64,000 bases of DNA from a bacterium. Its GTDB lineage: Bacteria; Patescibacteriota; Minisyncoccia; Phycocordibacterales; DATDWN01. Below are positions 13,735 to 62,966 of the stretch, one piece after another (the first letter of the stretch is position 1; every line of letters begins with the position of its first letter). Both the position numbers and the translations under genes were made by a program. The stretch lies in contig JBAXLH010000002.1 of NCBI GenBank assembly GCA_037134875.1, positions 27,719 through 91,718 on the forward strand. The letters are read 5' to 3'. The notes beneath the pieces are model-generated. The model searched no databases. It saw only the letters and a list, made by a program, of their open reading frames with translations, and was not told the origin of the DNA.

Positions 13735-13775
13735 CAAAAAACCCTCACCACAAAGTGTGATGAGAGCGGTTGGGA
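13735..13775 (-). terminator. Rho-independent terminator for the ncRNA, immediately upstream of the dnaX start
   Basis: Minus RNA ...CUCAUCACACUUUGUGGUGAGGGUUUUUU. Confidence 0.55.
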
Positions 13776-14275
13776 CCGGCGCGTGCGCTGGCGTCGTGTG
13801 AGAGCCGATGGCCTCGCGCCGATCCCTGTTTTCCAGTCTTTTTTTTCGCGGTTTTTGCTCCGCGCCGGACTATATCAATCATCCGGAATTTTTAGTGGCT
13901 GGTACCAGCCCGACTACTTTGCCTCCAGTAGAGATCTTTCGTGTATAGGCCGTAGCCCGCGACACTACTAGATCAATACCTTCAACGGCGTTTCGTCAGG
14001 GTCTTGGTGTTTAACTCCTTTCTGGGGAGAACCCCACCGAACCATCCCTTTGCTTCGTTGCGCAACCTCCGCTGAAGGCGCTAGAGCGCGGGCCGCCGGG
14101 TCTGGGGAACATTGTCCATCACCATGCCAAGGGAAACTACCGGCTATGATTGCATAGCCACAGTGAACTCTTGATCCCCAGAGTTCGTAGGGGTTTCGGG
14201 CCCGCGCTCAACGGCGAGGATTTATGCCGGTCACGATTTCCGGCGCCCGTCTTGAAGTGTTGAAGAACATTACAT
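13735..14275 (-). ncRNA. Unclassified GC-rich structured non-coding transcript (candidate housekeeping RNA: RNase P RNA / SRP RNA / 6S or other)
   Basis: ~540 nt without a credible ORF between dus and dnaX. GC far above neighbouring DNA. Many perfect hairpins. Bounded by a consensus promoter (14281-14309) and a hairpin plus U6 terminator (13735-13775) on the minus strand. Confidence 0.5.
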
Positions 14276-62448: not shown

Positions 62449-62625
62449 TTACTTCTTTACTCGTTTGAGTGGAAGTTTGACTTCACCAAAGACAACTCGC
62501 TGGCGGAGCTTTTTGTCATACTTTTTGAGGCCGAGTTTTCGCTCGACTTTTTTCTTGTTTTTTGAAGTGATATATACCTCTCCAGTTTTCTTGTTTTGTA
62601 TCGCGATAAGTCTATCTTGTGACAT
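62449..62625 (-). CDS. rpmG: 50S ribosomal protein L33 (missed by the ORF track, <60 aa)
   Basis: Hand translation MSQDRLIAIQNKKTGEVYITSKNKKKVERKLGLKKYDKKLRQRVVFGEVKLPLKRVKK aligns with bL33 (..[48 protein letters not shown]). Confidence 0.8.
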   Translation of the reverse strand: MSQDRLIAIQNKKTGEVYITSKNKKKVERKLGLKKYDKKLRQRVVFGEVKLPLKRVKK

Positions 62626-62667
62626 ATAATTGTATTTAAATTAGTACTGGCATCATACATAAAAATC

Positions 62668-62966
62668 GGAAAAAAAGCAAATGAAAAGCGCAGGGTGGAC
62701 ACCCCGCGCTCGTTGAGGGACGAAGCCCTCGGACTAGGCCGTCGCGACGGCCTTCTTCTTTTTCCGGTCGGAGGAAGCCGACGGCTTCCCCGTTCCGGAA
62801 ACCGGCGCCCCGCGCCGGATGGCCTCGAGAGCGACCATCGGGCGCTGCTTGCGCCCGTGGTCGCCGTGGCGCGGGACATTCTGTCCCGGCCGGAACTCCG
62901 TATTCTGATTGTACATATAAAAACTCCTTCAACTATAATATTAGCATACTATATAAAATCTGTCAA
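62668..62966 (-). other. GC-rich (~70%) autonomous unit: consensus promoter, AAGGAG SD, 60-aa Arg/Gly/Pro-rich ORF (62734-62916), hairpin plus U terminator. Small basic protein or structured sRNA.
   Basis: Minus strand: TTGACA-17-TAATAT (62966-62938). SD AAGGAG 7 nt before ATG at 62916. ORF MYNQNTEFRPGQNVPRHGDHGRKQRPMVALEAIRRGAPVSGTGKPSASSDRKKKKAVATA. Terminator GCGCGGGGUG-UC-CACCCUGCGC+UUUUCAUUUGCUUUUUUU (62668-62710). RNA forms a series of perfect 7-10 bp hairpins. Confidence 0.45.

Follow-up and report, generated by a model that had tools for sequence, protein, structure and literature searches.

A GC-rich island in an AT-rich Minisyncoccia genome encodes a small basic protein of an undescribed family, with GC content possibly maintained at the RNA level

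A 64-kb stretch of a contig assigned to the Phycocordibacterales (Minisyncoccia) (JBAXLH010000002.1, assembly GCA_037134875.1, positions 27 719 to 91 718; 64,000 nt in full, hereafter the window) contains, close to its right end at positions 62668–62966, a short GC-rich island that includes a 60-aa open reading frame (ORF) and is predicted to fold into a series of hairpins. The locus raises the question of whether the island is a small-protein gene, a structural RNA, a dual-function small RNA or foreign DNA, and of what keeps it GC-rich. The overall picture that we consider rather probable is that of a real small-protein gene with RNA-level maintenance of its GC content.

An earlier, sequence-only reading of the window had described a GC-rich island in an AT-rich genome with a consensus promoter, a Shine–Dalgarno sequence (SD) of a kind rare elsewhere, a basic 60-aa ORF and a hairpin plus U-tract terminator, and these elements were all recovered (Table 1). 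GC content is 70.9% at 62690–62895 versus 40.6% for the 64-kb window; the highest value in any 200-nt segment (0.715) lies at 62693, and a single further stretch of the window (14017–14259) rises above 60%. The promoter scores 10/12 with its 17-nt spacer and is one of seven TTGACA-N16-18-TAnnnT sites in the window. Its sequence block, ATATAGTATGCTA, is common to the window copy and the homologue at locus L096, and a diverged form, ATATATCGTGCTA, is found at locus L008. An SD match of at least 6 nt precedes only 2–3 of the 48 long genes in the window, which makes the claim of rarity roughly right, and an AGGAG(G) SD precedes every Parcubacteria homologue at optimal spacing. The ORF, which includes the motifs NVPRHGDHGRK and RGAPVSGTGKPSASSDRK, has exactly the sequence given earlier, and the terminator stem-loop begins 22 nt past its stop codon. 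A hairpin followed by a T-run also ends the homologues at L008, L073, L091 and L096, and promoter, SD and terminator signals are present in all Parcubacteria homologues. The island is a monocistronic gene cassette, with a near-consensus sigma-70-type promoter, an extended -10 element, an unusually strong SD, a 60-codon ORF and a terminator. The existence of the ORF alone is weak coding evidence, because three further frames (four in total) are open across this stop-poor GC stretch.

A word-indexed protein search with the single peptide returned the peptide itself only, whilst an exhaustive HMMER scan of 1.84 billion representatives returned two proteins of 57 and 62 aa with 46–52% identity. 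A degenerate DNA pattern for [VI][AS]GTGKP[SA]ASS gave 85 matches, of which approximately 70 were discarded as chance occurrences in GC-rich contigs. Combined with a profile search, this pattern led to 79 cluster representatives of 40–94 aa, with the window protein scoring E = 3.2e-13. All 79 are annotated as hypothetical or unnamed, and the few that carry organism names belong to Candidatus Yanofskybacteria or to an unclassified 'bacterium' metagenome-assembled genome (MAG). The family had no match in Pfam, NCBIfam, PHROGs, PADLOC, PDB sequences, PDB folds or BFVD, in agreement with the earlier statement that the peptide belongs to no recognized family. A phage-type member likewise had no tblastn match among INPHARED phages, and literature searches returned no description. 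Judged by these searches, the family of small basic proteins is new and undescribed. It occurs in Parcubacteria (Yanofsky- and Zambryskibacteria-like bacteria of the candidate phyla radiation, CPR) and, in a form with a CCHC knuckle, in what look like phage or prophage contigs of high-GC hosts.

Two family alignments (A2 and A3) and the individual sequences revealed three architectures. Architecture A (CHHC) reads M-L-V-P-C-P-F-R-G-D-H ... H-G-P-S-Q-C-P-P, architecture B (CCHC) reads C-x2-C ... G-D-R-H ... C-P-P, and architecture C comprises the Cys-less short forms, namely the window protein, P0002, P0003, P0075 and P0077. Common to all three architectures are P-x-(H/Y)-G-x-H, a segment of basic residues, an RG..V.GTGKP.ASS motif and a Lys-rich tail. 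In the window protein the C-terminal motif R-G-x-x-[VI]-x-G-T-G-K-P-[SA]-A-S-S with its basic tail is present as RGAPVSGTGKPSASSDRKKKK; R35, G41, T42, G43, K44, P45, A47, S48 and S49 are invariant in A2. The P-x-(H/Y)-G-x-H element and an Arg/Lys-rich segment are also present, with NVPRHGDHGRKQR aligning to PLPGEHGEHRRNKR of the long forms. The N-terminal CHHC/CCHC knuckle (C5, H19 and C24 are nearly invariant in A3) is absent. Because it is Cys-free and has the motif Y-(D/N)-x(4)-(Y/F)-x-x-G-(E/Q)-(N/D)-(V/I)-P-x-H-G in common with the four other Cys-less members, the window protein is assigned by sequence to the short-form subfamily and not to the canonical long form. AlphaFold modelled the long form with a beta-hairpin knuckle (pLDDT ~88), a helix at residues 33–51 and a low-confidence motif region. 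For the window protein it gave no secondary structure (pLDDT 63, pTM 0.18), and the protein is thus predicted to be disordered on its own. The GTGKP element may resemble the 'AT-hook-like' Q/RGR motif of H-NS/Lsr2.

The decisive evidence that the ORF is coding comes from codon comparisons. Across 15 DNA copies of the RG..V.GTGKP.ASS block (16 codons), the invariant Arg is written as CGC, CGT, CGA and AGA (CGN/AGA switches), all four codons are in use for the invariant Gly and Thr, and the nearly invariant Ser shows TCN/AGY switches, so that each of these residues is written with 3–4 codons. The ratio of non-synonymous to synonymous substitution rates (dN/dS) in close, unsaturated pairs of homologues is 0.09–0.21. 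This comparison, which the sequence-only reading had proposed as Ka/Ks in relatives, favours coding. The window ORF has GC contents of 0.65/0.53/0.85 at first, second and third codon positions (GC1, GC2 and GC3), a periodicity of the coding type. Together these comparisons show a real protein that, from its codons, is under purifying selection, and given the serine switches it appears very unlikely that the family alignment is an artefact. With distant homologues of similar size and selection at the protein level, the small-protein option put forward earlier was borne out.

The hairpins are equally real as features of the window copy. Five lie inside the ORF and the terminator adds one more; hairpins 1, 2, 3 and 5 contain perfect 7–9 bp stems (Table 1). 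The island has a minimum free energy (MFE) of -139.6 kcal/mol (z = -6.15 versus dinucleotide shuffles), and the ORF alone reached z = -3.75 against shuffles that keep both the protein and the codon set, none of 100 such shuffles folding as well. Four perfect hairpins were observed versus a mean of 0.61 in synonymous shuffles, and 0/300 reached four. For the 250-nt transcript the folding energy is -135 kcal/mol, whereas segments of equal length taken at random from that strand give -57 +/- 13. The view that serial perfect hairpins of this kind are unusual for coding sequence therefore stands. However, perfect hairpins of at least 7 bp are absent in most family members, and their serial arrangement is specific to the window copy, with L073 as a second, independent case. 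When the 59 MFE pairs of the window were projected on the codon alignment, 37–46% were canonical in L008, L096 and L097 versus 26–47% in slid-partner controls, i.e. the homologues did no better. Since codons turn over beneath invariant residues and pairs stay at the level of the slid controls, it is the protein that is conserved and not a specific RNA structure. The Rfam scan suggested earlier matched no family in the island at the gathering threshold, and at E <= 10 returned chance-level matches only (RsmW, 18 bits versus a threshold of 52; sX6, 13 versus 40). A purely structural RNA is thus unsupported on both counts, and the pattern that had been named as its signature, covariation with a broken ORF in relatives, is reversed here, with the ORF conserved in homologues and the hairpin pairs not.

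A dual-function transcript, encoding the peptide and also acting through its hairpins as a base-pairing small RNA or a protein sponge, is the alternative that survives best, although we regard it as unlikely. It is consistent with the exceptional predicted stability of the transcript and with folding stronger than that of synonymous shuffles for the window copy, L073, L091 and L068. It would also suit the seven long forms, whose alifold energy falls below that of codon-column shuffles (z = -3.85, against a control that is liberal), and the several non-synonymous deviations of the window protein that extend stems (E to Q, Q to R, A to S, RPMVA and AVATA). In contrast, there is no match to an Rfam family, no conserved unpaired seed or target is known, the window pairs fare no better than slid controls in homologues, and most members are without any perfect hairpin.

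More specific identities were also considered and set aside. A CsrA-type sponge would be expected to present GGA loops, of which there are none, and the RsmW match is at chance level. Signal recognition particle RNA and 6S RNA gave no model match, and the fold is multi-hairpin instead of rod-shaped. The peptide is hydrophilic and not membrane-like, unlike a type I toxin; no modifying enzyme lies nearby, as would be expected of the precursor of a ribosomally synthesized and post-translationally modified peptide; and a leader or attenuator of rpmG, the gene downstream, is disfavoured by homologues that do not adjoin rpmG.

Several long forms carry a conserved stem-loop in the 5' untranslated region, just before the SD. 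It lies ~20–40 nt 5' of the family ORF and reads GACCGC-GUAA-GCGGUC in one case and GACCGC-AUAGA-GCGGUC in the other (L091/L098 and L068), resembling a 5' mRNA-stabilizing hairpin.

The sequence-only reading had also entertained a foreign origin. A gene recently acquired from a high-GC donor (e.g. a phage) and not yet ameliorated, its hairpins a by-product of Gly, Ala, Pro and Arg codons, seems to us quite unlikely. Composition and codon usage are certainly far from those of the host, with a codon adaptation-like index of 0.514 for the window ORF versus 0.728 +/- 0.031 for host genes (6.9 standard deviations low). No GC island was found upstream of rpmG in three related Zambryskibacteria MAGs (L003-L005; 8-kb loci), the neighbourhood of the window copy is unlike that of the other short forms, and some family members reside in 66–72% GC phage-like contigs with the GC3 of their neighbours. 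However, every Parcubacteria member examined is a GC island, with ORF GC3 of 0.69–0.93 versus ~0.2–0.6 in neighbouring genes. In four genomes that share the order Wzy_C, family gene, uracil-DNA glycosylase (UDG; a fragment in L101) and DedA, the flanking genes have saturated synonymous divergence (pS 0.69–0.96) and GC3 of 0.28–0.59, whilst the family gene has pS of 0.53–0.71 and yet retains GC3 of 0.73–0.82. Recent import is unsupported because neutral amelioration would have erased the raised GC3 over such divergence. The AT-rich promoter of the window gene is homologous to those of two short-form genes (L096 and L008) from 32–39% GC contigs, which places the descent of the cassette within AT-rich hosts. 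Among homologues, those closest to the window protein are these Cys-less short forms and not the CCHC phage forms; no near-identical GC-rich donor sequence emerged from protein, DNA-pattern or profile searches; and the hairpin excess survives shuffling of the same codons. In terms of what is expected of recent transfer, atypical composition plus absence from the same locus in relatives is seen here, whereas a donor-explained composition that decays with residence time is not. Recent horizontal transfer is thus not supported by these comparisons as the explanation of the island, although an ancient link to high-GC phages is possible, the composition of the family being native in those contigs.

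Finally, a non-coding structured RNA or hairpin-repeat cluster whose ORF is an accident of stop-poor GC-rich sequence is highly improbable, as the four open frames, the strong structure and the solitary hit of the word-indexed search are outweighed by homologous ORFs of 55–94 aa in 79 clusters, synonymous turnover beneath invariant residues, dN/dS far below 1, third-position GC periodicity, an optimally spaced SD in every Parcubacteria member and the lack of conserved base pairs.

What, then, keeps the gene GC-rich? Sequence comparisons across the family show that the whole transcription unit is kept GC-rich in AT-rich genomes, chiefly at third positions. Amino-acid composition (Gly, Arg, Pro and Ala) accounts for GC1 and GC2 but not GC3. 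Downstream of long-form genes there is often a further small basic ORF (MNINRREFRRKLGTR...), translationally coupled by a TGATG overlap (Table 1), with GC3 of 0.79 versus ~0.4 in the host and no match in Pfam, NCBIfam or PADLOC. This second ORF is not homologous to the family ORF and yet equally GC-rich, which points to a constraint on the transcription unit and not on the protein; the force would then act on RNA or DNA. The most likely such force would be selection for a compact, nuclease-resistant and long-lived mRNA built of host-rare codons, its stability being a prediction, possibly combined with slow decoding via those codons. Peptides rich in Gly, Ala, Pro and Arg with GC-ending codons are rich in quasi-palindromes because those codons are mutual reverse complements (GGC/GCC, CCG/CGG and GCG/CGC), and the serial hairpins may be a window-specific exaggeration of this GC-rich tendency. 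The stems of the window copy are lengthened both by synonymous choices, for example GTT, GGA and ACG within the conserved motif, and by the deviations from consensus listed above, which fall at weakly constrained residues. Extension of the stems could reflect selection for mRNA structure or quasi-palindrome template-switch mutation, the pattern fitting both. Template switching at quasi-palindromes creates and perfects hairpins in the cases described in PMC8794818, PMC7202029 and PMC3820800, and palindromes within coding sequence are among those documented in PMC6649704.

Several observations weigh against maintenance of GC content and structure at the RNA level, or restrict it. In the collections the island occurs only as identical copies, at 100% identity in three metagenome contigs (two by alignment and one by identical ORF and flanks), and these offer no variation for an estimate of selection; between the window gene and its nearest homologues divergence is saturated (pS 0.56–0.8, pN/pS about 0.5–0.6). 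Of 11 members, only four (the window copy, L073, L091 and L068) fold much more strongly than their synonymous shuffles, and L081 shows no such excess; selection for structure is therefore not uniform across the family, and what is selected may be GC content itself instead of particular base pairs. GC3 could also be maintained by GC-biased gene conversion or by repeated transfer from one member of the Parcubacteria to another. Because its neighbourhood differs from those of the other short forms and the three MAGs have no island 5' of rpmG, the window copy, from its gene context, moved at some point, perhaps within its genome or perhaps between members of the Parcubacteria. The functional proposal set out below, moreover, derives from composition and neighbourhood alone.

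Maintenance at the RNA level nevertheless remains our preferred reading, and it admits a bolder extension that we consider doubtful. Parcubacteria would keep 'armoured' transcription units, such as the window gene and the two-gene long form, in which selection on RNA or DNA favours GC content and, in some lineages, serial hairpins, overriding AT pressure and codon preference. Such units might serve to store, during dormancy, a long-lived mRNA encoding a mini-protein that binds the nucleoid or the ribosome, to gate translation via rare codons, or to keep the gene clear of its own AT-preferring DNA-binding product. If this were true, synonymous sites in an ultra-small bacterium would be under stronger RNA-level than translational selection.

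With respect to function, the best reading of the sequence is that the window gene is strongly expressed, with an mRNA predicted to be very stable. Its product most likely binds nucleic acid or a nucleic-acid machine, as may be inferred from its composition, the knuckle and helix of its relatives and the gene neighbourhoods. The hints are a basic disordered protein, relatives with a zinc knuckle and a basic helix, phage replication or early neighbourhoods, UDG or translation-gene neighbours, and very strong expression signals. Any specific binding partner would be named with much less confidence than the overall picture.

Table 1. Features of the GC-rich island and of related loci; positions refer to the window unless a locus is given
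Feature	Position	Strand	Remarks
-35 hexamer TTGACA	62966..62961	-	Kept in short-form homologues L096 and L008
Extended -10 element TGC-TAATAT	62946..62938 (TAATAT 62943-62938)	-	TGC ends the 17-nt spacer
Shine–Dalgarno AAGGAG	62929..62924	-	7 nt 5' of ATG at 62916
60-aa ORF (with stop)	62916..62734	-	TAG at 62736-62734; short form of the small basic protein family
Hairpin 1, CGGGACA-GAA-TGTCCCG	62872..62888	-	Perfect stem; codons 10-15 (PGQNVP)
Hairpin 2, ~15-bp bulged stem GGCGACCACGGGCGC/GCGCCCGATGGTCGC (GDHGRKQRPMVA)	62831..62864	-	Perfect stem nested at 62839-62857; 3' arm encodes RPMVA, a segment atypical of the family
Hairpin 3, CCGGCGC-GGG-GCGCCGG	62802..62818	-	Perfect stem; IRRGAPV
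Hairpin 4, long bulged stem TTTCCGG..GGAAGCCG-T-CGGCTTCC..CCGGAAA	62761..62801	-	Over the conserved VSGTGKPSASSDRK motif; 20-nt arms enclose an 8-bp perfect core
Hairpin 5, perfect palindrome AGGCCGTCG/CGACGGCCT	62736..62753	-	Perfect stem; spans C-terminal AVATA and the first base of the stop codon
Intrinsic terminator, stem-loop	62711..62686	-	11 pairs, 7 G-C; T-rich tail to ~62668
rpmG, TACAAT region	62625-62660	-	TACAAT hexamer ~5 nt 5' of ATG; no SD
Second GC-rich stretch	13750-14270	-	~520 nt, 52-57% GC; immediately upstream of dnaX
Second small ORF of long-form units	L081 6942-7190	-	Also in L016, L020, L022, L068 and L078
Second small ORF of long-form units	L102 4249-4422	+	
217-aa ORF of a Zambryskibacteria MAG	L003 3263-3916		GC ~0.45-0.54 (moderately raised); between tRNA-Tyr and rpmG
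UDG fragment	L101 4671-4868		65-aa C-terminal fragment, downstream of the family ORF
CCHC form	L103 4001-4201		Phage-like contig
CCHC form	L100 657-860		Phage-like contig

Downstream of the island on the same strand lie rpmG (ribosomal protein L33; Pfam E = 1.4e-10) and tRNA-Trp, and upstream are genes with a prepilin N-methylation motif, forming a pilin operon. With its TACAAT hexamer (Table 1), rpmG may be leaderless, or may be served by read-through from the island terminator. Among GTDB genomes, Candidatus Zambryskibacteria/Minisyncoccia MAGs carry the rpmG genes closest to that of the window, which places the window in the Parcubacteria (CPR/Patescibacteria); in those relatives tRNA-Tyr lies upstream of rpmG. 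The genome is present in groundwater samples (SRR7053533, ERZ27299977). One of them (L003) has an ORF of moderately raised GC in the position occupied in the window by the pilin operon and island. In several genomes, long forms are flanked by a Wzy_C-type membrane protein on one side and UDG-DedA on the other, and the truncated UDG in L101 is probably a pseudogene. DUF4446 lies downstream of the short forms P0002, P0003 and P0077, and in the longer P0003 contig infB and rbfA come after it. Of the two CCHC forms in phage-like contigs, one adjoins a P-loop (GxxGxGK) protein of unknown family, ThyX, dCMP deaminase and a family-A DNA polymerase, and the other lies among Cro/CI-like and excisionase-like regulators.

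The sequence-only reading had further likened the island to another GC-rich stretch of the window, upstream of dnaX (Table 1). The likeness is one of style only, as this stretch also has a strong promoter (TTGACA-17-TATTAT, from 14308) and a hairpin with a T-run. The two are unrelated and differ in kind: the stretch contains no ORF over 50 aa, had no Rfam match even at E <= 1 and no transfer-messenger RNA call, and looks like a large non-coding RNA of no known family.

In sum, an anonymous GC spike has become a defined small-protein family absent from databases, with 79 representatives in CPR bacteria and high-GC phage-like contigs. The family amounts to a natural experiment, in which genomes of 32–45% GC carry the same gene at 65–70% GC, its GC3 reaching 0.93, across saturated divergence, a persistence not easily accounted for unless selection or biased conversion acts on synonymous sites. 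For annotators, the case shows that a GC island in an AT-rich CPR genome need not be a non-coding RNA or foreign DNA. To RNA biology it presents a gene whose mRNA stability may be under selection and in which hairpins may be seen growing inside coding sequence.

Among known systems, the small basic and zinc-knuckle proteins of bacteria and phages, a generic class with no assigned function, have the same size (55–94 aa) and basic composition, and the longer relatives of the window protein share with them a CHHC/CCHC mini-knuckle and basic helix, some of them in phage early or replication modules. The family differs in that neither curated families nor solved structures match it in sequence or fold, the knuckle is lost in the window member, and the RG..V.GTGKP.ASS motif has no known counterpart. 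SgrS/SgrT, RNAIII/hld and SR1/SR1P are dual-function small RNAs that encode peptides, and are alike in being short, structured and independently transcribed, with their own promoter and terminator and a small ORF; the window family differs in conserving the protein and not the RNA pairs, with no seed or target known. The rmf gene of E. coli has an exceptionally stable mRNA that encodes a small stress and hibernation protein. It resembles the window gene in its small basic product, monocistronic unit and structured transcript, but shares no sequence similarity with it, and the stability of the window mRNA is a prediction. As in the coding palindromes and template-switch hairpins described in PMC6649704, PMC8794818 and PMC7202029, the window ORF carries perfect inverted repeats, although its stems of 7–15 bp are short relative to the Nematomorpha palindromes and a template-switch origin is a candidate only. 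Lastly, the lgr ('large G+C-rich') genes of Protochlamydia are, as portrayed in PMC2216083, GC-rich genes in an AT-rich genome, and like the window gene they are protein-coding with GC content far above that of the genome. Those are multi-kilobase genes for repeat proteins, whereas the unit described here spans 180–260 nt and is GC-rich in many genomes despite saturated divergence.

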